A DNA stretch of 59,469 nucleotides, counting the filler, from Basidiobolus ranarum (taxonomy: Eukaryota): assembly GCA_040143965.1 (NCBI GenBank). It is 6 parts of 6 records of this genome, joined end to end, with 100 filler letters (N's around TTAATTAATTAA, not from the genome) between each part and the next. Parts side by side here need not be neighbours in the genome. Positions count along the whole stretch, not along the records: positions 39,731 to 49,551 come from JASJQH010007653.1; 5 more parts are not named here. One strand, written 5' to 3'. A program made the translations under genes and the position numbers. The notes beneath the pieces were generated by a model. That model was not told the origin of the DNA and did not search any database. It was given only the letters and a program-made list of their open reading frames with translations. Within the stretch, counting starts at the first letter, position 1, and each line of letters begins with the position of its first letter. Below are positions 9,842 through 54,092 of the stretch, piece by piece.

Positions 9842-9941
9842 NNNNNNNNNNNNNNNNNNNNNNNNNNNNNNNNNNNNNNNNNNNNTTAATTAATTAANNN
9901 NNNNNNNNNNNNNNNNNNNNNNNNNNNNNNNNNNNNNNNNN
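9842..9941. other. Artificial contig spacer (N44-TTAATTAATTAA-N44); repeated at 19778-19877, 29707-29806, 39631-39730, 49552-49651
   Basis: Identical 100-bp linker carrying stops in all six frames. Confidence 0.98.
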
Positions 9942-17970: not shown

Positions 17971-19610
17971 TCTTTAGAGAGAGCAAAAGAGAAGTTAGGA
18001 TATGAAATTGACGTATCTCTTCACCATGACTCCACTCTCTATTTATGCACTATTCAACCATTCTTGTTCATTACACTTACTCCACATGACCATAGCCAAT
18101 CACCGCGTATGCCTCCAGGAGCCCCTATTTACATTTCCTTGAGTTCTTTTAGTCATCAACTCAATGCTAATTTAAAGCAGATCGTCTCAATGCCTATTGC
18201 TCATTCTTTATCTTTAAATTAGTAACTTTCCTTTTATATCGATCTCACTTTCTTGCAGGGGGAAATCAAGTCAACACTTGATTGACTTGATCCTTAAGCC
18301 TTAATACAACCATTCTAGTGCGTCATCAGCTACTTGGACGATTAATGGACAAACCTCCTTGGCTGAGTGAAAAGCGATATCTTTGTGTGGGCAACCCCTC
18401 CACCCCCTAAATGAGACTACAGTATTGAATAGATTTAAATCTAATCTAGTGGCCATGTTTCGTCATTTGGAACTACCTTATCAGTGGACAATCTTTGGTT
18501 TAAAGATTACGGACACTTCAACGAGAACGAGCAAAGCCATCCTTTGTATTGTCGGTGTGACTTAGATTCTATGCTCTTTGGTGTCCAAAGCCTACTCGTT
18601 TATGCAGCATCATGTGATATATTTTCCATGGACCGTGAAAATTTTCGTACACAACTCCTAGAATCTTTTCTCCCATTTAGTCAGGAGTAATTCATCTAAC
18701 CGGCTTTTGTAGTGACCCCAGGATACCTATTTCTCTTTACCACCTCTTGCGCGTGTTTTGGTGGCGTTTTGTATGGAATCGAACACTATTACTTAATCAT
18801 AGCCACTCTACTAAGCCATTCCAAGTGTAAACCTGGAGTACTCCATGCATTTGATCCAACCATATGTTGATATTTATTTTGAATGTCATTAGGCAAGTAG
18901 TTTTCATCGCTTACGTGGTTTCTATGGATACCTTTTTTGATCTTTGACATTTAAGTAAACGTACTTGTCATTCAATTGATATCAAGGCAGTGTTTCAATA
19001 GCTTGGTATATGATTGTCAAACATTGCTATAATGTACAATACATATTTAAATAATTGACTCAAATGATAACAAATCCTGCCTGTCTTTACTCAGACAGTA
19101 GCCCCTATAGCTGTTCACTTGGTTAATCTATAACGAATGAAATAAATCCAAGAATGTCCTGTCCCATAGCTGTGCAGTTTGAGAGGCATATATAGCACTA
19201 GATATTGATAGTTACCGTATTAAAAGCACAAACTTGAGTACCTCTGCATATACTCTTGAATATTTTCATATGTTATTTGCACAGATATGAATATAAGTTA
19301 GAATTATATACATAAAATTGATAGAGGGCGATCATTTGAAGTATGCAGAAGTCCAAAAACTGTAAAATGTGAGAGCAGGTCAGAAGTAGCAGTCCCTGTA
19401 TACCCAATCTGTTGATAATTACTAAATTATATTACTGTAATTACTCTGAGTATCTGAGCGTTTAGAGTATGAGTAAGATGCAAAGTGAGAAATGAAACTG
19501 CTCTCTTAGCTTTAAAGCAGGTAAACTACATTTTTTTGAAATTAACATAGTTTAAACATCTATTTAGTGGTATTTCAAGTCACTTAAGACTAACTACTGT
19601 GTGCCCATAT

Positions 19611-19777
19611 TGTTGAAATTAGCATTGCCTATACACCTATATATTCCTGTATAGCTTAGTATTTAGTTATTCTATATTTCACCTAGATATCTCCCGCTGT
19701 CCTCAATCGGAATTTTCTGCAGACATGCTCCTGGGACCTTTATTAGCCCATCCTACACCTTTTTTTCTTACATCTTG
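19611..19777 (+). mobile_element. Ty1/copia LTR fragment (internally deleted, cut by contig end)
   Basis: Starts TGTTGAAATTAGCATTGCCTA and aligns with LTR copies at 42865, 47736, 48743(-), 50583 and 51231. Confidence 0.85.
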
Positions 19778-19877
19778 NNNNNNNNNNNNNNNNNNNNNNN
19801 NNNNNNNNNNNNNNNNNNNNNTTAATTAATTAANNNNNNNNNNNNNNNNNNNNNNNNNNNNNNNNNNNNNNNNNNNN

Positions 19878-29021: not shown

Positions 29022-29806
29022 GTTCACATATCTTGACACTTTCATTTGGTATAATATTGGAAGCGTAGTAGCATTTCATTCCCACGTACGTATAATTATA
29101 AAATGATTAACTTTAGCTCTATTTTATGAAATCAAGCACTATCTACTACACTTCCAACTAGATGTTTCAATTATTTCCCTGTTAATAAAGTCCACATAGA
29201 ATTTCACCAGTTATTACTTGATTTGTGGCCTGAGTCTGGGTGTTGCTGGTCATGAAATCCCCGAATTCGGGATATTCTACACATGTACTAGAAAGCATTA
29301 GGAGGATTCTTGAGCAAAGCATAGAGTACATCCAAGCGCGCTATGCAACACCCAGGGTTAGATTCGATATCATCCTCAAATGGGGAAGTTATGCATGTTT
29401 AGCGTCCAATGGTCAAGTATCAAATGGATTCTTAGGGTTAACTGCATATTCATAGGGTGCTTAATGATAAGGTAATAGCCAATCACTTTCCAATATTTAT
29501 GTGCAAAGTACTCATGAATGTATCAAGAGTGAGTCTTAAGCAATATCGTAAAATTGATGTGACGACGTCAGAGCCTGACACGAACTCAATGTAAACAAAC
29601 GGATCTCTATGGATTCTAATTAGTTAGAAAACATCCCCTTCTCACCCCCCCGCATCCTCCCCCACCCCCTAGTCAGAACAGACCCGTCGGAAGAAGAGTA
29701 AACCGANNNNNNNNNNNNNNNNNNNNNNNNNNNNNNNNNNNNNNNNNNNNTTAATTAATTAANNNNNNNNNNNNNNNNNNNNNNNNNNNNNNNNNNNNNN
29801 NNNNNN

Positions 29807-29909
29807 CCCATTATTTGATATTGGAATATACTTGGAAGTCTGAAGATATATAGATTTTAATAACTTGTGCTAGAGGCCCCAAACTTTGCATACATATTCC
29901 TGGGACCTT
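29807..29909 (+). mobile_element. Ty1/copia LTR internal fragment at contig start
   Basis: GATATATAGATTTT...GCCCCAAACTTTGCATACATATTCCTGGGACCTT matches the middle of the LTR family. Confidence 0.75.
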
Positions 29910-39630: not shown

Positions 39631-39730
39631 NNNNNNNNNNNNNNNNNNNNNNNNNNNNNNNNNNNNNNNNNNNNTTAATTAATTAANNNNNNNNNNNNNN
39701 NNNNNNNNNNNNNNNNNNNNNNNNNNNNNN

Positions 39731-40040
39731 TACAGCCAATTTTGGTGTGAACATACTTGGGAACCAATCATGATTCTTTCCTGCCATTTGTACCAGACAA
39801 GTATCGATTCATGGATCTTGTACTCCGATGACACTACCTTGGTACACAATCTTTCAAGTTGTACACGAGCATTATGCAACACAACATATCAAGTAACCAG
39901 AAAGAATAGAGTGACGAATCAGTAGGCACTAACCTCACCATGTGTAAGCGCAACAACTTTGTCAGCTTGTGAATCTCCAACAAGCCTGGCTGCTATTTTC
40001 TCAGCTAGATTCGTGATCTCTGAACCTTGATCTGCTGCTT
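39731..40040 (-). other. Possible exon fragments of an unidentified gene running off the contig
   Basis: Open segments AADQGSEITNLAEKIAARLVGDSQADKVVALTHGE and VVLHNARVQLERL...IMIGSQ, each followed by a GT donor-like site; no family recognised. Confidence 0.25.
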
Positions 40041-40317
40041 ATTTCAATCGAGAAACACGAATGTGTCATCTAGAAGATATCGAATGTAGTCACTAACTTC
40101 ATACATTGTAGGAAATTCATTTTACACTGAAGACAAAAGCACCCCATAACACATCTTTACTATTCAAATATATGCAGATTTAATAAATTCAAGATAAAGC
40201 ATTTCATTCAATCCACTTTGTTTGGTAACTAGTAGTATACTCGATTCTATAGCTGTAAAAGCGCAAGCGAATACATAGAGAAATAATACTTTCTTAACCA
40301 TAAGAAAAAAGTTGGAC

Positions 40318-40614
40318 TCAGCATACGATGAAGATGCTCTTCCAGCCATAACTGGATGATTGCTCAGAGTTTGCATCACTCTTTAATACGGAATGCGCAG
40401 CTCCGCTACATCCAGATCCATTATAGACGCGTCCACTTTGGCCCTCAGCGTACCACTTGTAACTACCTCTGTAGGGAATGGAAGAGCAGCCACACTTTCC
40501 AATGCTCTTGCTAGATCCAGAATAATGACCTCCAGAGTAAGCCACAAAGTTACTAGCATAGGCGGAGGTGCAGAGAAGAGCGGCAGTAATAGCGTAGAGA
40601 TTGATGCGGACCAT
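40318..40614 (-). CDS. Secreted MiAMP1-family (beta-barrelin) antimicrobial peptide homologue
   Basis: Signal peptide MVRINLYAITAALLCTSAYA, then 78-aa mature peptide with SxFxxxSG, KCGCSxI, GxY, GQxxxxYNxxGCSGxAH and GWKSIFIxC, the hallmark motifs of Macadamia MiAMP1 as recalled. Confidence 0.88.
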   Translation of the reverse strand: MVRINLYAITAALLCTSAYASNFVAYSGGHYSGSSKSIGKCGCSSIPYRGSYKWYAEGQSGRVYNGSGCSGAAHSVLKSDANSEQSSSYGWKSIFIVC

Positions 40615-42864
40615 TTTGTTGAATGCAGATTACCAAAGTGATGCCTCCTTTTTATTACTCACACAGCCCTACCATGTAACAAATATGGTAACTGATCACT
40701 CACTATCAAATATATTTCGTGTAAAGGTGTGCTACCACTTGATTAGTACTATTCAGAAACATCACTTGAGACTTATTCTCTAACTGTATACTCTTATTCT
40801 CCGGGAACTGCACTACCCCTCCAACCAGCATTGTGGTTAAATAACGTCTATATCTTCAGTATTAAGCATATACTCCTTCAACGAAAAGGCTGGAGCACCA
40901 ATTGCTGAATATATTTAATGACCTACTAGAGTGTAACTATTGCTACTCTTATTTTCATCAGTCTCAAATGAAATTCTGAGAGTAGTTGTTGTAATGTCCC
41001 ACTCATCCTTCACCTCATGCAGCGTATTGATACCCTATTCGGGATTTGCACTCTCATTATCAGCTTCATATTACCGCACATACTCACGAAATGAGGCAGG
41101 ATTGATAAAGCCGACCACCACCATCTACCTTCTCTTTTGAGCGTTATGATATCTCGCCCTTTCTCTCTAACTACTTTTCCAGATCAGAGCTTCCCCTCCC
41201 TTAGCGCCATATTAATCTGATTCGATATGCCATCAGCAGGAATCTACTTATTAATAGAGACTCTTTAATTGAAGTTTTATATCACGATATAGGTTAATCT
41301 CTCCACAAATAGGATTAATATTTGAGTAGTACGAATGTATGTGTTGGTGTTTTTGGATGTTTATACCTGGAGAGAGTCCAGATCCATTGCAATAATTCAT
41401 GTAGCATAATCTGGATATTGCACCACAAGTAGTGACCACGAATCGGTTCCCAATCTCAACTGAATATATATGGTACACCCAAATTCTGGGCGGGCATACT
41501 CAAGGACCAACTTTCAGAGACAGTATGACGCTGAGTGAGTATGTATTGGAAAATGATATATAAAGATGATAATTCAAATGTTATACTAAATCAGAGTCTC
41601 ACGTATTCATATATACGACGACTCTTTGCATGAGTCAGAAGTAAAATCATACAAATTGGATCAACCAGTTTACCACCTTGAAATACAACATTTATATTTA
41701 TCCATTTATGTGTATCCAGCTACACAAGTAGTATTGCACTGTTGTACGCATTCTTTACTTTCTTCTCTTTGGCTCTTTTTCTGCAGTCCCCTTGTTATGT
41801 ATTTCTGTTGTTTTCTCTAGAAACTACTGTTCTTTTCAGCTGGCACATGCAGATTGTGAGCCTTTATACTTTTTTTACTTTTTTGGATAGTTTTCTTTCC
41901 TATTCCGCTGTTAACTATTCATAAGTGATATCTATTAGATGTTGCATATCTTTAGCTTATGAAGTTGATAATCAATGTTGATTGCTCGCTAAACTGCTAC
42001 TAACTAATTTTGGATCGATTGATTGACCTTCCATTAGAATCTGCTTAAGGTACTTGATTAATCAAAATCAATCGATTCAATCCTACTTGGAATGGACAGC
42101 ACAAAACCATACGAGTGGCGGTGAATGTACAAAAGATGCAGTTGAAGACGTGACAGGTGAGTCGGTATAATATATTACAGAGACTATCGTATTGCAAGTA
42201 CATAGCAATACTCATTAACACTTAGCCCATAGTTACCTTATAGTAATTCATACAAGTGTTTGAGGGATAGTATTATCTGTCCCCTTTTATCTCTTCCATT
42301 ATTCCTAACTGAACCATGTGAAACTGGTTTTAATCCCAGTCATATTTCGAGCTGAAAACCACATCCTTTCTGGCTTGTTGTAAATTTCGATATCTACATC
42401 TTGGTCTGCTATAAATTCAAAATATTTTCAACTTATTTCTACTTTATATCTTAAAACCATAAGCCACTCCCTAGTTACTCTATTGGGTCAAGTGTTAACC
42501 CCTTCCTTCCTATACCACCACTTGTAGATCTTAAGTCCAAGTAGGTGCTACTAAATATATATTGAAATTCTATAGGTGATCTCAAATTTCCGCACAAGCA
42601 AATTGCTGATGAAAACAAACTAAGAATGTTTAACTAGTATTATTGTAGTAATTGATCAAGTGTTTCTCCATTTTCCATAGGTGTTCATAAGTAACAAGTT
42701 CAATTGAGTTGTGCCTACCAAATAATTATTCCAAATTGGATAAACATTATAAATAAATAATATTTTCAGAGTACTCTGGATTGAGGATGTGTAAATTATA
42801 TACATTAAAATTCATGCCATAATACCTCAGTGGTTGGGTAATATTTTTATGCTGCTCTAGATTA

Positions 42865-43184
42865 TGTTGAAATTAGCATTGTCTAAACATCTATATAGGC
42901 ATATATAGCTTAGTACTTAGCTATCTTATATTTCACTAAAATGTTATCCATTGTTCTCAATCGGAATTTACTTCGAAGTTCTCAGATATATAGATTTTTC
43001 AAAGAAGCCCCAAACTTTGCACACATGTTCCTAGGACCTTCTTAAACACATTCTACACGTTAGTTTGTTTACATCTCGACAAAACTTTAAATGTCAACTG
43101 AATACTCAATAAATCAATAAGTGAACACTACCAACTTCTCTTTTTCTCCAAACTACTTCCAACAGGCTCCCAAATACTGTAACA
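42865..43184 (+). mobile_element. Solo Ty1/copia LTR with 5-bp target-site duplication
   Basis: TG...CA termini (TGTTGAAATT...CTGTAACA) flanked by GATTA on both sides (42860-42864, 43185-43189). Confidence 0.92.
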
Positions 43185-43817
43185 GATTATGGATACGTAT
43201 ACCCTGAAATTCATGCCATAAAAGCTGAGGAATATATGGGCTGAGCGCCCAATTGAACCATTTGAGCTAAACCTAAATCCTACCCTCTGGTTGAATGTTG
43301 CTGACATTACCTAGTCTGCTCCAATAGTTAAAAATGAAATGTGGCACAAATATCGGTCACAATACCTGTCACTTTGAGGGTATTAACTGTATTAGGATTA
43401 GCGCATTGGTTGCGAGGTGTAGATATAGTTTTATTATGAGGACTTTTAATTTCAAGAAGTAATGATCCGCCAGTAATGGTCCACTGGGGTTGTTCTTTAC
43501 CCTTCATTTAAAAATTACTTGTGACACTGAATAACCTCAAGTATCACACAAAACTTCGCTTACACCATAATCCATATTGATTCCACTCCTAACCAATTCA
43601 AAACTGCAAGTAGTAGTTAAGCTTTATGCGATTCTAACCTATAAGTATATGCTTGACAACTATAGAATATTTAATTTATTTATTTCATTGAAACAATAAT
43701 TAATTAGTCCAAATAGTATTAAAATATTATGCTATTAAAATATCCACTCAAGGGAGAAAAAACGAAGAAAATAACTTCTAAGCAACTTCAGCAGTCGGCG
43801 AAGCATCTCTGCACGAC

Positions 43818-45503
43818 TTAGGAGATTCTAAAGATTACTTGCATACCCATCATCATATGGGTAGTGATATGGCAATGCAACAACCAAAATCCTGGATTGT
43901 CAGCTTTGAACCGGATCACTCTCCAACCGCATTTGTCCCCAGGCTTAAGGGTTTTTGGTTGAAAGTATGCATTAGCTGAAGGAAATACAGTGGTAGTATC
44001 TCTAAGTACTGGGTTTTGAGTATCCAACAATGCTTCACGTTCTTTGACGGTGGTAGTGTTATATTGTCCAGGACCGTAACCTAGATCATAGAATGAGCGA
44101 CCATGCAAATGCCATGGATGTTGCTCACATATACCATTCGCGGCAACGGTATTCTGGAATACTAATTGAATCACTTCACCATTTCGAAGTTCGATCACAG
44201 GAACAGAATTTCCAGCACCGGCAGTCGCCGCATGAGTAAGTAATGTCACGGACGGAGTTTTACTGCTAATGCCGTTCACAAACCATTTGACTGTAGTGTC
44301 CACAGGTTGTTGAGTAGCCGTCAAGGTAAACTCTCGGGAGACTTTCTTTGGGAATATGTAATGGTAGTTGTCAATAGGTAGCTTTTTTTTCATTTGAACA
44401 GTTGGTAGTATCCAATTGGGAGATTCACTTGGATGAGTTGGTATACCGCTCGTTATAGTTTGGATTAACTCTGGTTCAGGGACGGTAGAGTAGTGTAAAA
44501 CGGAAATTCCATTGCCAGCTTGGAATGGTCGCCACTTTGGGACTGCATGAATAACATAGTTTTGCGGAGTCTGATCCATGGTTACCAACACGGAGTATCG
44601 TTGACCAGAGTTAATCTCCAAGTTGGTGATCTGCACTGGCTCAATCATACTACCATCAGCTTCAATAAGAGTCATATTGTGATTAGCAATACTGAGGCTC
44701 ACGTAGGAGAGAGAGGTTGCCCCAATAATACGTATGCGATATGTCTTTCCAGGTTCGACATTGATTTTATCATAGGAACAAGTTCCGGGTTTTGGAATAG
44801 CACATTGTATGGCTGGAGTGGCAGACCCGGTAGCCCAATCGCCAAAAGTTTTACCATTTGTCAAAATAGAAGCTGGATCACCAATCCAACTGAAAGTCTC
44901 ATTCACAATACCCGTCGTCAGATCTGGCTCTGCTCGATGAAACAAATCGCTGATCATTAACAACCGTTCGTCATCATAACGTACGCCTGCTTGTGTTCGT
45001 GTGTTATCTTTGCCAGATTCGCGAACAATGATAGCTCCAAATACTGTGTTAGATTGCAAACTAACATGAGCATGGTACCAGTACGTTCCAACTTGGTCGT
45101 CCAAGTCCATACGATAGACAAAAGATTGGCCCGGGAATATTGGATCCTGCGACACAAAGGGAGTACCATCCATCTGGGGGGACCCATGTTGTTCGATTCC
45201 GTGCCAATGCACCGTGGTCACATCGCTTTCCATGTGGTTGTTGACAGTAATTATAAGTGTGTCACCTTGTGCTGCATAGATAGTTGGACCTGGAGAACCT
45301 CCGTTCACTAAGAGCATGCTTCGCTGGCAACAATCAGGAGATCTAAATCCATAAGTAACGTTAAACTCGTAGTATACGTTAGCGGCATCAATGCTAGGAA
45401 AGACTGCGCATATTAAAATGGCGAGGATCAATGTCTGAATAGATAAAAGGCTCGTCAAAGATTTGAGCGAAGGCGCACTCCACGACAAACGTAGAAGAGA
45501 CAT
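43818..45503 (-). CDS. Secreted multicopper oxidase, ascorbate-oxidase-like (AA1), intronless
   Basis: Hydrophobic N-terminal signal; copper motifs VHWHG, YWYHAH, HPWHLHG, HCHITTHMMMGM (Met as T1 axial ligand); SPDC and ADNPG motifs. Confidence 0.93.
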   Translation of the reverse strand: MSLLRLSWSAPSLKSLTSLLSIQTLILAILICAVFPSIDAANVYYEFNVTYGFRSPDCCQRSMLLVNGGSPGPTIYAAQGDTLIITVNNHMESDVTTVHWHGIEQHGSPQMDGTPFVSQDPIFPGQSFVYRMDLDDQVGTYWYHAHVSLQSNTVFGAIIVRESGKDNTRTQAGVRYDDERLLMISDLFHRAEPDLTTGIVNETFSWIGDPASILTNGKTFGDWATGSATPAIQCAIPKPGTCSYDKINVEPGKTYRIRIIGATSLSYVSLSIANHNMTLIEADGSMIEPVQITNLEINSGQRYSVLVTMDQTPQNYVIHAVPKWRPFQAGNGISVLHYSTVPEPELIQTITSGIPTHPSESPNWILPTVQMKKKLPIDNYHYIFPKKVSREFTLTATQQPVDTTVKWFVNGISSKTPSVTLLTHAATAGAGNSVPVIELRNGEVIQLVFQNTVAANGICEQHPWHLHGRSFYDLGYGPGQYNTTTVKEREALLDTQNPVLRDTTTVFPSANAYFQPKTLKPGDKCGWRVIRFKADNPGFWLLHCHITTHMMMGMQVIFRIS

Positions 45504-46117
45504 AATACGATAAGCACCTGGAGAAGAAAATTATAGTGAATGAGGGACGGATTACAAGGATATTTATGAGTACTTCATATACTGTATCTAGAACTAAAGT
45601 AATATTGCATATATTTCTAATATAGGATGCTAATGAATACTATTTGAATTCTAATTGGTCTACAAATTCATTTTTATATAGCTAGCTCTTTATGGCACCG
45701 GTACATTAGGTAAGGATATAATGAAATACGGTCAAGGACGCCCGTAAAGTGTTCAGAGGGACTAATAAGATTCACTTAAAAACCTTAACAAATAATATTT
45801 CAAATCGATGAAGGCAACACAAAAATTCGCTGCATAAACCCAACATTAATGATTCAATGCCATGCTTTGTGACACCCATATGATTGGGTCAAAGTGATGA
45901 AGTCAAAAAAGGGATTACACTAGAAGAAAGCTATTACTGAAGGAGTTAACTGGGTAAGAGTAGTTACCTAAAGGCCCACGCCATACTTAGAGTAACCCCT
46001 AACCCTAACAAACCATATCGAGCAGCACTTCTTTTCCTACATATTTCAGGTTGGGGCGTCATTGGTTCCTAAATATCAACAATTATGCAAGCAACAACTA
46101 CAAAAAGTAAATACGAT

Positions 46118-46223
46118 TTGTATCTACCGTAATTTGAATGGAATGCATTGTATCTACCGTAATTTGAATGGAATGCATTGTATCTACCGTGATATGAATG
46201 GAATGAATTGTATCCATCGTAAT
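46118..46223. repeat. Minisatellite, 30-bp unit x about 3.5
   Basis: Unit TTGTATCTACCGTAATTTGAATGGAATGCA; two perfect copies, then degenerating ones. Confidence 0.9.
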
Positions 46224-47735
46224 CATTCCTTACCTTCAATTGTAGCCTTTGTAAGTACTCCTTACCATTCCTGACCTAATTCTATAGATTGTATCCATAG
46301 CAACCATTTAGCACGCTAAAAAATTCCCCAGTTGGTGTAGTACCAATTACATGACTAGCAGTCATTTTTCTCACTAATTTTGCAGTTTTTATATTTACTG
46401 ATATACAAAAGCCAATAGTGTCGAAAGTTCAAATGCATAATGGTGTCCAATTTGTAACCAAGTTAGTGGAATATGAACTTAGTCCGGTTTTGGGAGTGTG
46501 GTTTGAGATCACGTTGTCTATTTAGTAACATCCTAGGTACAACTGACCAAAACCTGGCCAAGGTTGGTTGCAAGTGTTATGAAGCATTTCATTTTTTATT
46601 TCGTCCGTATCACACCGAGGGGTATAAACGTGGAAGTAGAAATTTTATTTTGTCGGACCAATCACTAATCCGGAGAATCACCGTTTTTGGGATCTCGCCT
46701 TCCAATTCCTTCTTATTGAATATGAAATGGGATTTATTTCTGTAGAGCTGCATGCAAATACTTGCTTGGATAATTCCAATTTGCGAGTTTACATTGCGGG
46801 TGACACCCTAACTGACATCAGTAGGTTTAGTAGTGATTGGAAGTCACATTTAAATTATTTCCGATGGAGGTTGTTTAGATTTGCCATCAATGTATCGTTA
46901 TGCATTGTAACCCTCATCCACATGAAAGGTTGTTCTCGGCGAGAGTAAACAGATGTATACACTCCAATATGCATCCTTAATGATCAACTTAAAAGACCGG
47001 TTTCCTTTGAGTGTCGATATATGTATATATATATTATGAACAAGCGAGGCTAGAAGTTGAATTCCATGCGTCAAAAATAATAGGTAGTGGACTCAACTTA
47101 TTAGCTCTCTTCATCTATAACACTTACAAGCCTACCTCTTCTTTCCCATGCCGCTTTAGCTCTTATTACCCTGCAACAGAGAAGCGTGATACAACATACA
47201 CGTTTTTCTGCGTATTAGCAGCGCTGATCATGCTGAATTATTTAATGGAATGAAATTGGGTGGTACTTGCTACCGTTCCACGAAATACTTAATTCATGGC
47301 CAAGTTCATAGTTACAGTTAGTCAACGGTTGGAGAGAGTTTCAAAGAAAATGATAGTTTGGCTTCATGTAATTTGCTTATATTGGCTAATTTTTCTTTTA
47401 TGTTATCCAACGTTTGCCGAAAAAAAGTGTTCAAAAGAATTATGTTGATAATATAAATATTTGAATTTTTTTCTACTGTTTGTCGACGGTATCTCTCTTA
47501 CACTAATTCCAGAGTATCTTGTCAAGATTGATGTGCCAAAGACTGTATTACTGCAACGTGTTTACAGCTTGTAAGTATTGCTTCTAATGCGTTGAGCTTA
47601 CATTAAACGCTCATTACGTCCCTAGAGCAAATACAACTTTCTTCAGTATATGTATTATAGCAGCAGCTTGAAGTTAACAAATGATGTACCATTTTCTTGC
47701 TAAAGCTGAAATCAATTATATTTATTTGATATCAG

Positions 47736-48395
47736 TGTGGAAATTAGCATTGCCTAAACATCTATATAGTCATACATAGCTTAGTACTTAGTTATCTTAT
47801 ATTTCACTAAGATATTACCCATTATTCTCATAAGGAATATACTTATAAGTTCTCAGATGTATAGATTTTTCAAACTTTTGCTTTGACAAAACTAAAAATG
47901 TCAACTTTCTACTCAATAAATCACTAAGTGAAAACCTCCAATTTCTCTAATTCTCCAAACCACTTCCAACAGGCTCCCAAATACTTTAACAGGTTATGAG
48001 CCCCAATCTTGCACTCTCTCTAATGTCTACTTCTCAAATTTCTGGTACTTTTCTCTCCTCTGAAAAGTTGGATGGAACCAATTAGAAAGTTTGGAAAGTC
48101 AAAATGAGAGTGCTGCTGCAAGAAAAAGAACTTTGGGATACTCTTGTTGGAGAAGAAAATAATTCAAAACCATCTAAAACCAAATTTTTGCTCTAGGTAA
48201 AAATAAAACAAAGTACCTTTAACACAATTGTCTAAAAGTTAAAGACAAATTGCAAATTCACTATTCAAGAACCAAAGCTGGCAAGAAGGTTTGGGAAGCC
48301 TTAGAAGATACCTACCAATTATGTTTTGTAGCCAACAAGATGCTTCTAAGAAGATAATTCTTCAACTCAAAGATGAAGCCAGGAGAAGATGTTAA
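47736..48395 (+). mobile_element. 5' end of Ty1/copia element: LTR (47736-47991), PBS (47992-48004), degenerate gag (from 48023)
   Basis: LTR ends ...TTTAACA, then GGTTATGAGCCCC; gag reads MSTSQISGTFLSSEKLDGTN*KVWKVKMRVLLQEKELWDTLV with stop and frameshifts. Confidence 0.9.
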
Positions 48396-49551
48396 TGTTA
48401 AAGTATTTGGAAGTCTGTTGGACGTGGTTTGGAGAATTAGAGAAATTGGTGGTTTTGACCTATTGATTTATTGAGTATTCAGTTGATATATATAGTTTTA
48501 TCAAGATGTAAGCAAGCTAACATGTAGAATGTGTTAAAGAAGCTCCCAGGAACATGTGTGCAAAGTTTGGGGCTTCTAGCACAAGTTTGAAAAATCTATA
48601 AATCTGAGAACTTCAAAGTTGGTGTCTATAATCTAAGTAAATTCCAATTGACAATAATAGATACTATCTTACTGAATTATAAGATAACTAAGTACTAAGC
48701 TAGATATGACCATATAGATGTTTAGATAATGCTAATTTCAACACTCTCCCTCAACTAAGTAGTCATATAATCTAATCCTAATAAAGCTCTAAATTTCTGT
48801 CTATTTAATGGTTTGGTTAGTATATCAGCAAACATGTCCCCTGTAGAGCAATTAATTAAGTTAATAAACTTATTTTCCATAGTCTCTCCAATGAAGTGAT
48901 ATTTAATAACTCTATGATTGCTTCTATTATAAAACATGGAATTTTTAGCTAATTTGATACCACTTTGATTATCTTGAAATATTGAAGTTGGAAAGTTTTG
49001 AAAGTAACCTAAGTCTGTTATAAGCTTTCTTAACCATGGTGCTTCTTTTATTGCTTCACAGGCTGCCATTTATTTTGCTTCTGTTGTTGGAAGTGCTATG
49101 GTAGGCTGTTTCTTTGAATTCCAAGAAATAGCTCTATTATAGCAAAGAAATAAATATCCTGTTGTAGATCTTTTGTCTTCAAAGTCTCTTCCCCAATTTG
49201 CATCTGTATATCCCATCAGATCAAAGTTTGATCCAGAATATGATTATATTTAGCACAGATCCACAGTACCATGCAAATATCTGAAAATCTGCTTAACTGC
49301 TAAGATTTGAGCAGATCCCAAATTTTGAAGATATATTAATATCTATGTGTTTGCTTCTATTATGAAACGTGGGATTTTTAGCTAATTTGATACAACATTG
49401 ATTATCTTGAAATATTGTAGTTGGTGAACTTTGAGAATAACCCAATTCTGTTAAGAGTTTTCTTAAAGTTTCCACATAATCTATTCCTGGTGCTTGGGAA
49501 TAGCCTTTGGCTACTGGTCTAGCCTGGTACCTTTCTATATTGCCATCAGAG
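48396..49551 (-). mobile_element. 3' end of Ty1/copia element: RT/RNase H relics, PPT (48744-48754), 3' LTR (48396-48743)
   Basis: RYQARPVAKGYSQAPGIDYVET, AVKQIFRYLHGT, GYTDANWGRDFEDKRSTTGY, FQDNQSGIKLAKN, DMFADILTKPL; polypurine tract TTGAGGGAGAG abutting the LTR TG. Confidence 0.92.
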
Positions 49552-50582
49552 NNNNNNNNNNNNNNNNNNNNNNNNNNNNNNNNNNNNNNNNNNNNTTAAT
49601 TAATTAANNNNNNNNNNNNNNNNNNNNNNNNNNNNNNNNNNNNNNNNNNNNGGAATCGAAACTCTACGGCGGCAATACAGTTAGTTCCTTTGTACCACTA
49701 GAGGGCGAAGTAATAGGCAGTTTGAGTATCTAAGATCACACCATTGCAGCGTGCACGAATTTAGAAATAGAAGACTCTACCGCTAACATCGCCTTTAAAT
49801 GGGCACTGTAGTGGAGTAGTAGTATATCGTGTTACCAAATAGCGGAGAGTGTAACTCGAAGGGCCAACAAGTCTTAATTTTCTTCCACGAGACACACGAG
49901 CTGCGGCCCTTCATCTCATCTTTGTAAGAGGTGCAGGTCAAGTGGGAACCGAACTAAATACCATGTCTATTCTAGAATGGAAAGACCCACTCTTCAGTTT
50001 CGTATTACAGACCAGATGCTCCACGTTTACTGAGCGATGTTAAGTATTTACCGCAGTAGGCTTCTCTTGAGTGATATCGCTTTCGATGAGACAAGATAAA
50101 TCAAGTCGATATAGATCCGGAGATACCCACGCCTTTAATCGAATACTGGTTTGTCGACTACCATTGAGAAGGATATTGGATTACACATGTCTCAAATAAA
50201 ATATGGATCGGTATCCTCCGTCCATAAAGCTAAACGCCCCTTTAAAGTAATCACGAATGTTATACGATGTGGATGCTGGAGAACAGTTTCTAACAAGATA
50301 CTATTTGCTTAGAAAGGAGACAAATGGATGTAGACAAAAATGTACCAGGTAAGGGCATTGGTGAATTACGTATAGTGATGGGTTCATAGTATAATACCAA
50401 TGAGACTAATCTAAATCAAAGAAACAAGCTCTTAGCTATAGCGAGAAGAGGACTGTTTGTAACGTCTTGGGATTATTGAATGGGTCTCGGTGCTCATAAT
50501 TGGATATACTTTGTGTTTAACACAATAATAGCTAATATACTGTGATCTCACCATTGGTAGCCAAATAAACATATGCTAGATG

Positions 50583-50916: not shown

Positions 50917-51230
50917 CCTATACCGTCAAAGTCATATAATTCAGTCCACTGACCAGTTATCATCTCATACACATTTTTCAGAGTTTATGTTCTCAATAAT
51001 TTCAGTATAGGATTTTACGTGAGCATGTGCCTTACTACCCTGAGTATTGATATCTTTGGCAATATAGAAATATCCAGATGTTAAACATTCAGCTTTTGTT
51101 TTGAATCAGATCATGCTATGGTTTGTTGAGATATAAAGGTTGCAGATATCCATCTTTTTAGACAATATATCTTGTATATATGTTTTGGAAATTGACATCA
51201 CTTTGAAATTCCTCATTTGCTTCTTCCCAA

Positions 51231-51661
51231 TGTTGAAATTAACTTTGCCTAAACACCTATATAGTCATATAGCTTAGTACTTAGTTATCTTATATTTCAC
51301 TAAGATATTATCCATTATTCTCATGAGGAATTTACTTAGAAGTTCTCAGATATATAGATTTTGATAACTTATGCTAGAAGCCCCAAACTTTGCACACATG
51401 TTCCTGGGACCTTCCTTAACACACTCTACACGTTAGTTTGCTTACATCTTGACAAAACTATAAATGTCAACTGAATACTCAATAAATCAATAAGTGAAAA
51501 CCACCAATTCCTCTAATTCTCCGAACCACTTCCAACAGGCTCCCAAATACTTTAATAAATTCCTCATGAGAATAATGGGTAATATCTTAGTGAAATATAA
51601 GATAACTAAATACTAAACTATATATGACTATATAGGTGCTTAGGCAATGCTAATTTCAACA
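51231..51661. mobile_element. Full LTR (51231-51557) fused to an inverted copy of its first ~105 bp (51556-51661)
   Basis: Both ends read TGTTGAAATTA inward; arms 51231-51334 and 51556-51661 are reverse complements with a few mismatches. Confidence 0.88.
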
Positions 51662-54092
51662 ATATATTCAGGTAATTTTATCCCTGGAAATAGAGAGCAC
51701 ATTTGTCACCACCCTACATAGATAGACTTGCAATGCAATCTTGGCCAGGAACCATATGATGTTCTTTGGGAGGGAGTCCATATTCATATGTACCTTCAAA
51801 TAGCATTTTAAACCCATGTTCAAATATTCTGCAAGTGAATACAATAGATAGAAGTGCTTAGGGTAGGTTAAACTCTATAACGTAATCCCATGCCTAATGT
51901 GTTGCTGAATATAAACCATGTAGAATAGGCAACTCAGATACAAACGCACTCCTGATCAGGCCACTCGTAGTATCTACTTTCTCCATATGGTTTACCATCC
52001 AGAAGCTTTCGTCATCTTTTTGGAGGCATGGATGAAACTATGATCTAGTTCATGTAGTCTTGATGCACTTATTTATTATACACTTGCTTATTTATGGTTA
52101 ATTGTCGATCAGACCAAAATGAGTCATCAGATAACAGTATACCAAGATTTTCCATTGGATAACTAATATATATATATGGCAAGTCGGTAAACCTTTATGA
52201 TAAGACGAGCTAAATCCGGATTGCAGTATGCATATGTGTAAAGACCAAGCATGGAGAGGCGATTTTCTAGCGTTGCTTTGAAAGTTTAAGCGATTGAAAG
52301 AGCAACCGCTTCGTATGCACCTGTACAGAGATATCCGATACCGTTGATGGAATACAAATTTCTCGCAGATTCTGTGGTAACTGCTTCCCGATGATGAAAC
52401 TCTACATCCGCCAGTCAGTGTGGCTCAAAGGCATGTAACAGTGCTGTTGTACACATGCTAGTGGAAATAAATTGACTCCTTATTGTGTATTTTCTGAGTT
52501 ACCCTGCATCACGTCACTGTTTCACAGAAACACACATCAGCCAAAAAGATCGACTTTTCCATAACCGGCTTTCTAGTAAGTGTCCCTCTTCTTATAGTTA
52601 GAATTCACTCATATACTTCTAGTGATACACGATTATTATTTATCGACGCACAAATAGTCCCATGCAGCTGAGATCAATACATATAACATGGAATGCGGGA
52701 TACAAATCTATTGCACCATGCGCAAGTAATAGACTGATGAGAACCATTATATCGTCTGATGGAACGATTGAGCGTGAATCTACTATGTAACATCTAGTTG
52801 AACATTTGTGAATCCGTTGGAGCAATGCCCGATTGAATATGAGTGTGTCGGATAAACCGTGGGCTGAATTAAAAATCATCTGAAAGTCTTGAAACCTGTT
52901 GCACCAGGAAGTCCAAGGTATCTTGGCTTTACAATATTAGATCATTCAAATCAAATGTAGGCACTGCAGCATAAACCGGATGGGGTCCTGAATATCCATC
53001 CATTTGCAGTATCTCATATCAAATACCCCTCCGTACCAAAGGAGTGTGCTCAATATAAGCACTTCTTGCGTTAGATAAGCATGCATTGATACGCTTGAGC
53101 CTTGATTGTCAGGATCATGTGCCTCAGGTATTACACATTTCCCCACCAGACAGGTCCCTGTTAGCATACACTGAGATCAATACACTTCTGTTTCTACCAA
53201 GTGAACTATGACGGATCTATGAGAGTAAACATCTAAAGTACCATTACATCAGCATAAACTTGACGTTCCCATACAAACTGAAGGCGGTTAAGGACACCGA
53301 ATCTAGCCGACAATTATTACCAATCTTATCACGCATCGTCATGTACTAGTTACATCAGGAATAAGCTTGCCTTGTGTTGTATGAAGGAATGTTGGATGAA
53401 TCGCATGTTGATATGGGATTTGATTGATTTATTGCACTGGTGATTTAAGAGCTACCAGAGTGATGTGAAAGTGGCGATTTCCATATCAAATGCATATTGC
53501 ATTGTAAAGTATTATGAGGATCTCTGCTACTAATTGGTAGTGTAATAAGCTATAGTAGATGTGATACATACTATGCATGCGAGCATCTTTATTTGTACCT
53601 TGCCATGCAATAATTTACTAGTCTTCAACTCCGCTATCCGCAATCCATGTTCAATTTAGTTTGAATCGCTGGCTAAGAAATGATGTACATGAGTCCGTCA
53701 TAATTCCCAAACACTCGTCTCTCCAAAGCATACTCATGTCTGTATATAGGTATATGTAACAAACTACCCACTATATACGGCGCTCAGTTCACTTATCTGC
53801 TGCTCGTGCATAGTCAATGTAAATCAATCGAGATGCGCGAGCTCATCTCATGCAATCAAGCTTAAGAAAAGAAGAAAAGTATTTATATAACAGACAATGA
53901 TTTCAAAGGTAGCAATTTTGAGAATAATGGTCGAAGGTCTCATCCAAAGTAGGGTACAATTGCTTTGATAAGTGGTTCTTAATTATATGGGTCATTCCAA
54001 AAAAAAAGTTATCTGATACTGTATGAGTGCTTTTGTGAGTGATCAAAGAATAGAATCTAAAGTTTGGTGTCTAACAAATGAGAGTTTCCTCA

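Follow-up and report, generated by a model that had tools for sequence, protein, structure and literature searches.

The question raised by this locus is how a fungus came to carry a gene of the MiAMP1 type, and what its product may do. In passages of reviews, MiAMP1-type peptides are presented as plant peptides found in lycophytes, gymnosperms and some angiosperms, and no discussion of bacterial or early-diverging fungal members was found in the titles, abstract openings and passages of the MiAMP1 literature. The window, i.e., the whole 59,469-nt stretch of Basidiobolus ranarum DNA that was analyzed, consists of six assembly pieces joined by 100-nt N/linker blocks, and its fifth piece contains a 98-aa ORF running uninterrupted from ATG to TGA (ORF list and sequence; Table 1). 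This ORF is a nuclear gene from Basidiobolus, most likely from B. ranarum; it is intact, contains no intron and encodes a small MiAMP1-type protein that is predicted to be secreted.

Table 1. Features of the MiAMP1-type locus (positions count along the window).
Feature	Position	Strand	Basis
MiAMP1-family CDS, single-exon, complete; 98 codons plus TGA (40318–40320)	40318–40614	−	ORF list, Pfam PF09117
Predicted signal peptide, codons 1–20; with basic R3 and a hydrophobic core, A-Y-A preceding the cut	40555–40614	−	Sequence; predicted cleavage
Mature 78-aa domain, predicted Greek-key beta-barrel, codons 21–98	40321–40554	−	AF2 model, 1c01 superposition
5′ flank: ATG context with A (−3) and G (+4); putative TATA-like A/T-rich stretch ~35–45 nt upstream	40615–40660	−	By eye, tentative
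Assembly piece carrying the gene, 9,821 nt, between N/linker blocks	39731–49551	.	N runs and linkers located; length equal to the longest contig (9821) listed for this protein and for the oxidase
Multicopper oxidase gene, neighbor	43818–45530	−	Pfam Cu-oxidase, Cu-oxidase_2, Cu-oxidase_3

The gene product almost certainly belongs to the MiAMP1 ("beta-barrelin") family. Pfam PF09117 (MiAMP1) was matched end to end (profile positions 1–76 of 76, residues 21–98) with 54.7 bits (E 1.2e-14) at a gathering cut-off of 26 bits, and the PDB chain 1c01 was matched by sequence with an E-value of 1.5e-12. The alignment with 1c01 showed one 2-residue indel and a structure-based identity of 39–40%, in agreement with the initial annotation, which had proposed homology to MiAMP1 and had estimated roughly 40% identity end to end with one 2-aa indel. 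An AF2 model built from an alignment of 62 sequences showed eight strands and a mean pLDDT of 88.5 (about 96 over residues 21–98 and about 59 over residues 1–20); this model was used instead of a single-sequence model, which reached a pLDDT of 41. The top structural match of the predicted model was 1c01 (Z 13.8, rmsd 1.2 Å, 76 of 76 residues; Foldseek E 3.4e-5, TM 0.90, rmsd 1.3 Å), followed by beta-gamma-crystallins with Z-scores of 7–9. The Greek-key beta-barrel of MiAMP1 is retained in the predicted model, and the comparisons by Pfam profile and by structure both confirmed the proposed homology.

Public protein collections were found already to hold an identical protein with PF09117 precomputed, and the gene is therefore a refinement and not a discovery: what is new here is a member added to the known MiAMP1 family. 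Two near-copies from B. ranarum carry the automatic UniRef name lactococcin 972. This name was not supported, as a Pfam scan at E-values up to 10, in which HMMER filters remove most matches above about 0.1, gave MiAMP1 only and no match to the lactococcin 972 family. NCBIfam showed no model for the MiAMP1 family (0 relevant matches with eight proteins).

The hydrophobic leader (residues 1–20) ends in A-Y-A ahead of S21, a residue conserved in at least 90% of 62 relatives. Residue 2 of 1c01, the chain of purified MiAMP1, aligned with residue 22 of the query, and residue 1 of mature MiAMP1 thus corresponds to S21. From the sequence, the leader would be cleaved before S21 and the mature chain secreted. 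The mature domain of 78 aa has a computed mass of 8.19 kDa, a pI of 8.98 and a net charge of about +3.6, and contains 19 Ser, 12 Gly, 7 Tyr and 4 Cys (C41, C43, C69, and C98), so that the initial description of an intronless 98-aa ORF with a signal-like leader and a basic mature peptide with four cysteines was correct. MiAMP1 of Macadamia integrifolia (1C01) has a signal peptide, as is predicted for the query, and likewise a domain of about 76–78 aa forming an eight-strand Greek-key barrel, cysteines at positions 21, 23, 49, and 76, a basic mature protein and a final Cys at the protein end. The Basidiobolus protein differs from it by the missing Cys11/Cys64 pair, by a loop ahead of the last strand that is two residues longer and by a pI of 9.0, compared to the value of about 10 quoted in print for MiAMP1.

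Cysteines 21, 23, 49, and 76 of 1c01 were shown by the alignment to correspond to C41, C43, C69, and C98, and cysteines 11 and 64 to Y31 and S86. Exactly the C11/C64 pair is thus replaced, as stated initially. The first MiAMP1 disulfide is given in print as Cys11-Cys65; its second Cys is residue 64 in the 1c01 chain as aligned. By analogy with the MiAMP1 disulfide map, the pairs C41-C98 and C43-C69 are predicted. Among 62 sequences C41 was invariant and C98 at least 90% conserved, and both of these cysteines, which correspond to the outer disulfide (C21-C76), are present in the query. Compared to the plant form with six cysteines and three disulfides, the query has four of the six cysteines, and the six-Cys state defines a plant subgroup of the MiAMP1 family only. 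The C11/C64 pair was absent from 56 of 71 family rows, and 40 of the 71 were of a two-Cys type with the outer disulfide only (equivalents of C41 and C98). The loss of C11/C64, initially taken as a special co-varying change in this gene, is therefore the normal state of the family.

The multicopper oxidase gene was the sole conserved gene physically linked to the MiAMP1-type gene. Its best named relatives were from B. ranarum (86%) and B. meristosporus (40%), and it ties the piece to Basidiobolus. Copia-like fragments were also found on this piece, and repeat families were common to it and to the pieces with genes for biotin ligase, myosin II and eIF-1A; the oxidase and the shared repeats bear out the fungal origin of the DNA assumed from the start. 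It is extremely improbable that DNA of a bacterium or a plant strayed into the fungal assembly here, or that the piece is another assembly artifact, as could be suspected from the fragmented assembly and from the position of the gene, which lies 587 nt from the end of a 9.8-kb piece. Besides the Basidiobolus-type oxidase, the copia-like fragments and the shared repeats, the GC content (0.37–0.48, compared to 70–74% in a related actinobacterial contig) and two more near-identical copies recorded for B. ranarum argue against it; the 90% cluster of the query contained two named B. ranarum proteins differing by 1 and 4 residues. Neither the GC content of the gene (0.48), nor its GC3 (0.475), nor its CAI-like value (0.745) departed from what seven other genes in the window showed (range 0.65–0.78). 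Myosin II, eIF-1A and Utp10 were ruled out as physical neighbors of the gene by the linkers between the pieces.

A phmmer search against 1.84 billion representatives gave 65 matches at E ≤ 1e-3, and PF09117 was matched by 57 of the 62 aligned members. About 30 of the 65 matches carried a source name, and the remaining ones were grouped by Cys pattern and leader composition. Two matches were rejected as not belonging to the family, P0044 being a 2,126-aa immunoglobulin-repeat fish protein and P0057 a 1,019-aa repeat protein. A word-index protein search recovered the query's own cluster alone, and a nine-sequence profile (8,000 candidates) added one Nonomuraea protein. In prokaryote genomes, relatives were encoded at 44 of 54 pattern matches, all of them Actinomycetota by title, with 44–57% identity. 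Their distribution was patchy: within one family they occurred in 16 of 201 genomes, and a phylum sample of 401 genomes gave two matches, both at loci already in hand. A metagenome scan added one locus, located on an actinobacterial contig with 73% GC and distinct from the fungal-looking P0006.

The highest identities of the mature domain were found with actinobacterial proteins named "MiAMP1 family antimicrobial peptide" from Microbispora, Nonomuraea, Streptosporangium, Herbidospora, Streptomyces, and Kribbella, the forms from Streptosporangiaceae, Streptomyces and Kribbella showing 54–58%. These proteins share with the Basidiobolus protein the precursor length (about 102 aa), a long loop, the GWKSIFIVC motif at the C-terminus and a leader ending in A-x-A before Ser, and the position of C11 is likewise taken by an aromatic residue; they differ from it in mostly having the outer disulfide only and in being encoded in genomes of about 70% GC. 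No characterized actinobacterial MiAMP1-type protein was found in the literature searched. Identities were 47–50% to the Stephania proteins a and b, 32–49% to Mortierella proteins, and 30–46% to six-Cys plant-type rows. In agreement with this order, the mature domain scored 105 bits with a profile of the fungal/Stephania type, 102 bits with one of the two-Cys bacterial type and 68 bits with one of the six-Cys plant type. The six-Cys plant forms are less similar to the query than the actinobacterial forms, a large branch that had not been foreseen.

A tree based on 78 columns was calculated from the family rows, leaving out P0044, P0057, and the fragments P0014, P0017, P0055, P0056, and P0059, and including 11 of the 44 bacterial loci, since most of these were near-identical. 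The classical six-Cys plant rows all fell within a clade of 23 rows (support 99/97) that excluded the Basidiobolus rows, which showed no well-supported sister. In the best tree, 11 long-loop four-Cys rows were placed on one side of a weakly supported branch (65/84), comprising Basidiobolus, Mortierella, two sequences without source name and Stephania a and b, and this grouping was still weakly present when the Cys columns were removed. The Basidiobolus gene is a member of this long-loop four-Cys subgroup, the named members of which are Basidiobolus, Mortierella, and Stephania, and which adjoins the large two-Cys actinobacterial group outside the six-Cys plant clade.

This placement bears on a transfer from plant to fungus, which the initial annotation had expected to appear as nesting within land plants and in which a four-Cys plant MiAMP1 gene would have been captured by the fungus. 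Such nesting was not found, given the 23-row clade and the low six-Cys plant profile score, and a tree constrained to unite Basidiobolus with 15 classical plant-type rows was 26.8 lnL worse. The AU test did not reject this tree (p 0.0795), and Basidiobolus plus plants is therefore disfavored, not rejected. The Stephania cephalantha proteins, encoded on a 50-Mb contig, speak for such a capture, being four-Cys, long-loop and similar to the query at the level given above, and in the best trees they were placed, with low support, together with Basidiobolus. The long-loop form was found in this single plant genus only, so that the direction could equally have been from microbe to plant. To our knowledge, Basidiobolus is not a plant associate, which also counts against capture from a plant, and we consider this origin very unlikely. 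The gene most likely represents a microbial branch of the MiAMP1 family, common to soil bacteria and Mortierella, and not a recent plant loan.

Either an old exchange with bacteria or an old fungal lineage may account for this microbial branch in Basidiobolus. In the first case, the gene would be a mobile antimicrobial gene that Basidiobolus acquired in an old exchange between kingdoms, with Actinobacteria as the partner, either directly or through another fungus; it would since have become fully adapted to the codon usage of its host. According to passages of published work on three further genomes of the genus (B. meristosporus, B. heterosporus), 2–5% of the genes were called bacterial transfers, with Actinobacteria as the third commonest source and 61% of the candidates intronless, and Basidiobolus and Mortierella are singled out together in a study of horizontal transfer. 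We infer the direction and age of the transfer, and a bacterial ultimate source of the gene falls just short of an even call. The bacterial forms nearest in identity have two cysteines only. Direct descent from such two-Cys forms would require the C43/C69 pair to be regained at the homologous positions, which points to an unsampled four-Cys donor or to another history.

In the second case, the gene would have descended vertically from early terrestrial fungi, being retained by Basidiobolus and Mortierellaceae, perhaps persisting in Dikarya in strongly diverged form, and disappearing from other lineages. A tree with all seven fungal rows constrained to one clade was 0.88 lnL better (AU p 0.544), the best tree unites the fungi with the two sequences without source name and Stephania, and the codon usage and GC of the gene are host-like. 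The Mortierella proteins (hypothetical proteins of M. alpina, M. claussenii, M. sp. GBA30, and M. sp. GBAus27b) come from early-diverging fungi and share the four-Cys pattern, long loop and predicted signal peptide with the Basidiobolus protein, with which they were grouped in the best tree. They differ from it by their lower identity, by long branches (1.1–1.5) and by acidic to near-neutral mature domains (pI 4.75–7.68). For small secreted proteins of Dikarya, a link to the MiAMP1 fold or family has already been published: passages of the literature predict for Ecp4 and Ecp7 of Cladosporium fulvum the fold and Cys spacing of MiAMP1, and a secretome table of Aspergillus fumigatus lists a PF09117 "secreted antimicrobial peptide." Language-model neighbors of the query, useful as leads only, were small-protein clusters from Ascomycota and Basidiomycota (0.94 and 0.90).

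Against vertical descent, the named fungal matches among the 65 came from two genera only, and no relative from B. meristosporus was present among them (E ≤ 1e-3), its proteome being in the collection. The Dikarya relatives are too distant for phmmer at this threshold, Ecp4, Ecp7 and the A. fumigatus protein being absent from the approximately 30 named matches. Besides, the Basidiobolus protein is nearer to the actinobacterial forms than to those of Mortierella, and a plant, Stephania, falls inside the group. An old fungal lineage is on these grounds rather unlikely. The overlooked and putatively ancient fungal branch suggested initially is supported in part, by the presence of further fungi in the family (the four Mortierella proteins) and by the acceptability of fungal monophyly. 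The best explanation overall, which we hold with moderate confidence, is that the gene encodes a secreted four-Cys MiAMP1-type protein with a wall-binding or antimicrobial role, gained by an old exchange with Actinobacteria.

Taken together, the gene and its relatives are distributed patchily over three kingdoms and fall into three disulfide grades with two, four, and six cysteines. These grades offer a natural comparison from which to learn how strongly such a small barrel must be cross-braced and what it really targets. Speculatively, MiAMP1, seen as a "primitive plant defence" family, might be an interkingdom-mobile microbial weapon, most diverse in Actinobacteria, that entered eukaryotes at least twice: seed plants once, where the third disulfide was then added, and early-diverging fungi once or twice, with an exchange between fungus and plant accounting for Stephania. 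This wider scenario has only a limited chance of being right. If it were, the Basidiobolus gene, with four cysteines, a long loop and the canonical crystallin tyrosine at a plant Cys position, would be a living intermediate. For Basidiobolus, a gut and soil fungus noted for uptake of bacterial genes, it represents a candidate ribosomal antimicrobial beside the known arsenal of secondary metabolites. Its practical value is modest, as a compact scaffold that is probably very stable and easily expressed and tested.

With regard to function, the protein would be stable and mildly cationic and would act extracellularly, where it may bind a wall polymer of competing microbes, possibly beta-1,3-glucan in analogy to Sp-AMP3 of pine, and thereby inhibit the growth of competitors in soil, dung or gut habitats. 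Sp-AMP3, a classical plant form of the same plant family, is reported in print to bind beta-1,3-glucans, and served as a model for the mechanism. According to passages of the literature, the tested members of the MiAMP1 family are antimicrobial, and antimicrobial activity and beta-1,3-glucan binding are known for plant members only. By this analogy, a secreted antimicrobial or wall-binding role lies just on the probable side. The pI of the mature domain ranged from 4.0 to 9.7 across the family; charge is thus not conserved, and a purely cationic mechanism is unlikely to be general.

This variation in charge would also be consistent with a different job for the same fold, i.e., a structural or stress protein of wall or spore, a role known from several microbial beta-gamma-crystallins, or a coat on the fungus's own glucan. 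The structural neighbors after 1c01 included such proteins, namely Myxococcus Protein S, Physarum spherulin 3a and the Neurospora abundant perithecial protein (Z 6–9), and no conserved partner genes were found beside two bacterial homologues. However, the membership in the MiAMP1 family is at the sequence level, and the N/D-N/D-x-x-S/T-S calcium motif of microbial crystallins was absent from the mature sequence, where it cannot be present because there is no adjacent Asn/Asp pair. [quoted passage not shown] A different job is therefore clearly unlikely, and we retain the secreted antimicrobial or wall-binding role. The likeness to WmKT, SKLP and AFP1 is at fold level only (7–15% identity), and their Cys frameworks are different. 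The fold common to MiAMP1-type proteins and WmKT, stated in the initial annotation, was recovered with the predicted model; 1wkt was not among the PDB sequence matches at E ≤ 10 and is a fold neighbor only (15% identity). The genes beside the two bacterial homologues encoded a mycothiol S-transferase, a zinc dehydrogenase and an FAD protein, and 6 of the 10 ORFs there belonged to no family.

The ORF was identified as a member of the MiAMP1 family by sequence and by structure. In a protein scan at E values up to 10, PF09117 MiAMP1 was the sole Pfam family returned (54.7 bits against a cut-off of 26, E 1.2e-14, profile positions 1–76 of 76). Among all PDB chains, phmmer matched 1c01, the structure of Macadamia MiAMP1, at E 1.5e-12, and the next matches were antibody chains with E above 0.05. 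The alignment to 1c01 contained a single two-residue indel and placed C41, C43, C69 and C98 against chain Cys 21, 23, 49 and 76 (mature MiAMP1 numbering), with Y31 and S86 opposite Cys 11 and 64. Structure prediction from the single sequence was poor (pLDDT 41); the model built with a 62-relative alignment showed eight strands and a mean pLDDT of 88.5 (about 96 over residues 21–98). Foldseek gave 1c01 as the top match of this predicted model (E 3.4e-5, target TM 0.90, rmsd 1.3 Å, 39% identity) and as the only one of 393 matches reaching E ≤ 0.001. A second, independent aligner run on 48,161 chains also recovered 1c01 (Z 13.8, rmsd 1.2 Å, 76 of 76 residues), followed by beta-gamma-crystallin domains at Z 7–9. 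These sequence and structure matches therefore confirm the homology to MiAMP1 proposed in the initial annotation. [quoted passage not shown]

The protein already carries the PF09117 tag in public collections. The UniRef name of two B. ranarum near-copies (P0066 and P0067), 'Lactococcin 972 family bacteriocin', looks wrong, because the Pfam scan of the window protein lists MiAMP1 only. A leader (residues 1–20, basic then hydrophobic, with A-Y-A at its end) precedes a predicted mature domain of 78 aa (residues 21–98; 8.19 kDa, pI 8.98) with 19 Ser, 12 Gly, 7 Tyr and 4 Cys. By eye, A and G occupy positions −3 and +4 around the start codon, while approximately 35–45 nt upstream of the ATG there is a TATA-like A/T-rich stretch. 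The remaining frames across the CDS were short by-products only, and tblastn showed one copy of the gene in the window.

Features of the MiAMP1-family gene, its assembly piece and the joined pieces
Feature	Position	Strand	Remark
MiAMP1-family CDS	40318-40614	minus	ATG-to-TGA, 98 codons, unbroken frame
Piece 5, carrying the gene	39731-49551		9,821 nt
Multicopper oxidase	43818-45530		physically linked to the gene on piece 5
Copia-like polymerase fragments	48755-49069, 49293-49551	minus	piece 5
Repeat copies, gene's piece	42865-43188, 47717-47995, 48396-48745		
Same repeat family, three other pieces	19607-19749, 29823-29909, 51229-51680		
Joining blocks	9842-9941, 19778-19877, 29707-29806, 39631-39730, 49552-49651		N runs

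The window is not one contig; it consists of six separate pieces of 9,818–9,841 nt in descending size, joined by five 100-nt blocks (44 N, the twelve-base word TTAATTAATTAA, 44 N), and adjacency across a block does not amount to linkage. The SURF4, WD40, biotin-ligase, Utp10, myosin II and eIF-1A genes therefore lie on pieces other than that of the gene, which is 587 nt from the left end of piece 5. For both the gene's protein and the neighbouring oxidase, the longest recorded contig has the length of piece 5, 9,821 nt. The best named relatives of the oxidase were from B. ranarum (86%) and B. meristosporus (40%). Piece 5 has repeat families in common with pieces 2, 4 and 6 (shared copies of 80–220 nt, 62–91% identity, both orientations); together with the copia-like fragments this is consistent with the LTR family that had been described as common to several contigs. 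The 90% cluster of the protein includes two named B. ranarum proteins differing by 1 and 4 residues, and the GC content (0.48), GC3 (0.475) and CAI-like index (0.745) of the gene fall within the range of seven other window genes. Contamination is very unlikely. The three near-identical B. ranarum proteins may be alleles or paralogues, the assembly being fragmented. A second B. ranarum copy of the oxidase (P0101, 86% identity) hints at diverged duplicates or sub-genomes, which complicates the copy count of the peptide gene.

A phmmer search of 1.84 billion representatives gave 65 matches at E ≤ 1e-3 (27 at ≤ 1e-10), with source names known for about 30. Two matches, P0044 and P0057, were rejected as long repeat proteins without a MiAMP1 domain, one of them a fish immunoglobulin-repeat protein, whose many weak stretches had carried them past the threshold (E 4e-7 and 5e-5). 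PF09117 was matched by 57 of 62 aligned members. Named matches came from fungi (Basidiobolus and four Mortierella species), plants (Cryptomeria, Anthurium, Macleaya, Spirodela and Stephania) and bacteria (Streptomyces, Embleya and Streptosporangiaceae), the latter titled 'MiAMP1 family antimicrobial peptide' at NCBI. No relative was found in B. meristosporus, though its proteome was in the searched collection; this is weak evidence, since annotation easily misses small genes. With one genome per prokaryote species, 44 of 54 pattern matches were confirmed as relatives (44–57% identity), all in Actinomycetota (Microbispora, Streptosporangium, Nonomuraea, Herbidospora, Sphaerisporangium, Rhizohabitans, Streptomyces and Kribbella). 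PF09117 was matched in 16 of 201 sampled Streptosporangiaceae genomes and, phylum-wide, in two of 401, both already among the collected relatives, with no match in the 399 further genomes; the family is thus patchily distributed among bacteria as well. This actinobacterial branch is large, uncharacterised, mostly single-disulfide and highly conserved across Streptosporangiaceae genera.

Cysteine classes were scored on 71 aligned rows. The outer pair only was present in 40 rows, every named one bacterial, and the six-Cys plant type in 15, one with five Cys. The four-Cys pattern of the gene was found in 16: seven fungal rows, two relatives without source label (P0002 and P0006), three Stephania models, Streptomyces pini, Embleya and two further unlabelled rows, although the terminal Cys of Stephania b and c may be an alignment artefact from read-through gene models. 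The absence of C11/C64, initially regarded as a co-varying loss, is therefore the usual state outside classical plants. A loop two residues longer than in six-Cys plant rows was shared by the fungal rows, P0002, P0006, Stephania a and b and most two-Cys bacterial rows. The C11 position in non-plant rows is mostly Y, F, H or W, and Y26-x4-Y31-x-G33 of the gene product resembles the beta-gamma-crystallin Greek-key signature: the first key (residues 26–33) reads Y-x4-Y-x-G, with Cys there in plant MiAMP1, and the second (residues 64–71) Y-x4-C-x-G. This suggests, depending on the root position, that the third disulfide was added in plants rather than lost in Basidiobolus. The family's three Cys grades correspond to these two signature positions. 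Stephania cephalantha (Ranunculales) has three MiAMP1-like models on one 50-Mb contig, none of them with the C11/C64 pair. Two share the long loop and fall among the fungal rows, not with classical plant forms. The C-termini of the Stephania models look mis-annotated, with read-through tails.

In an IQ-TREE analysis (71 rows, 78 columns) the three Basidiobolus rows formed one clade (100/99), outside a 23-row clade (99/97) of all classical plant rows, S. pini- and Embleya-type bacteria and Stephania c. The nesting in land plants anticipated under plant-to-fungus transfer was thus not seen, and a plant source is improbable, even though joining Basidiobolus to 15 plant-type rows (cost 26.8 lnL) was not formally rejected by the AU test (p 0.0795). 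Around Basidiobolus the tree is an unresolved comb; in the best fully resolved tree 11 long-loop four-Cys rows lie on one side of a branch (65/84), with similar but weaker grouping without the four Cys-trait columns (32/63 and 36/69). The mature domain scored 68.4 bits against the profile of six-Cys plants, 72.2 against short-loop four-Cys bacteria, 102.0 against two-Cys bacteria and 105.2 against Mortierella/Stephania/P0002/P0006. An old fungal lineage, the other origin initially proposed, is rather unlikely: the seven fungal rows as a single clade gave an AU p of 0.544, but named fungal matches comprise two genera, not a wide spread matching the species tree. According to published work, the two zygomycete lineages that stand out for the uptake of bacterial genes are Basidiobolus and Mortierella. 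For three other Basidiobolus genomes (B. meristosporus, B. heterosporus), 2–5% of genes were classed as transfers; 61% of these lack introns, and Actinobacteria rank third among the sources. Given this uptake, the two fungal genera and the lack of plant nesting, our tentative preference is for an old exchange with Actinobacteria. What speaks most strongly against a simple bacterial donor is the absence of the C43/C69 pair from the most similar bacterial forms.

On the basis of homology, the predicted secretion signal, the compact fold braced by disulfides and the positive charge, the protein is, slightly more probably than not, a growth inhibitor that binds walls outside the cell and serves in competition between microbes. 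However, pI spans 4.0–9.7 among relatives, structural or stress functions occur in many proteins with the fold, and the gene neighbourhoods of bacterial homologues gave no clue to function. Pine Sp-AMP3 is described as antifungal and as a binder of beta-1,3-glucans, not of chitin. In literature outside the subscription journals, two of 29 papers mentioning MiAMP1 pair it with 'horizontal gene transfer', both of them general reviews by title and abstract start, and among the 15 papers listed in a mixed-term search there was no combination of MiAMP1 with Basidiobolus or Mortierella. The cross-kingdom MiAMP1 pattern is a by-product more interesting than the gene itself. Published work lists a PF09117 protein among Aspergillus fumigatus secretome entries and predicts MiAMP1-like folds for Cladosporium Ecp4 and Ecp7. 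The nearest language-model clusters, one from Ascomycota (57 members, score 0.94) and one from Basidiomycota (92 members, score 0.90), contained proteins of approximately 100 aa that may be remote Dikarya relatives of the MiAMP1 fold.
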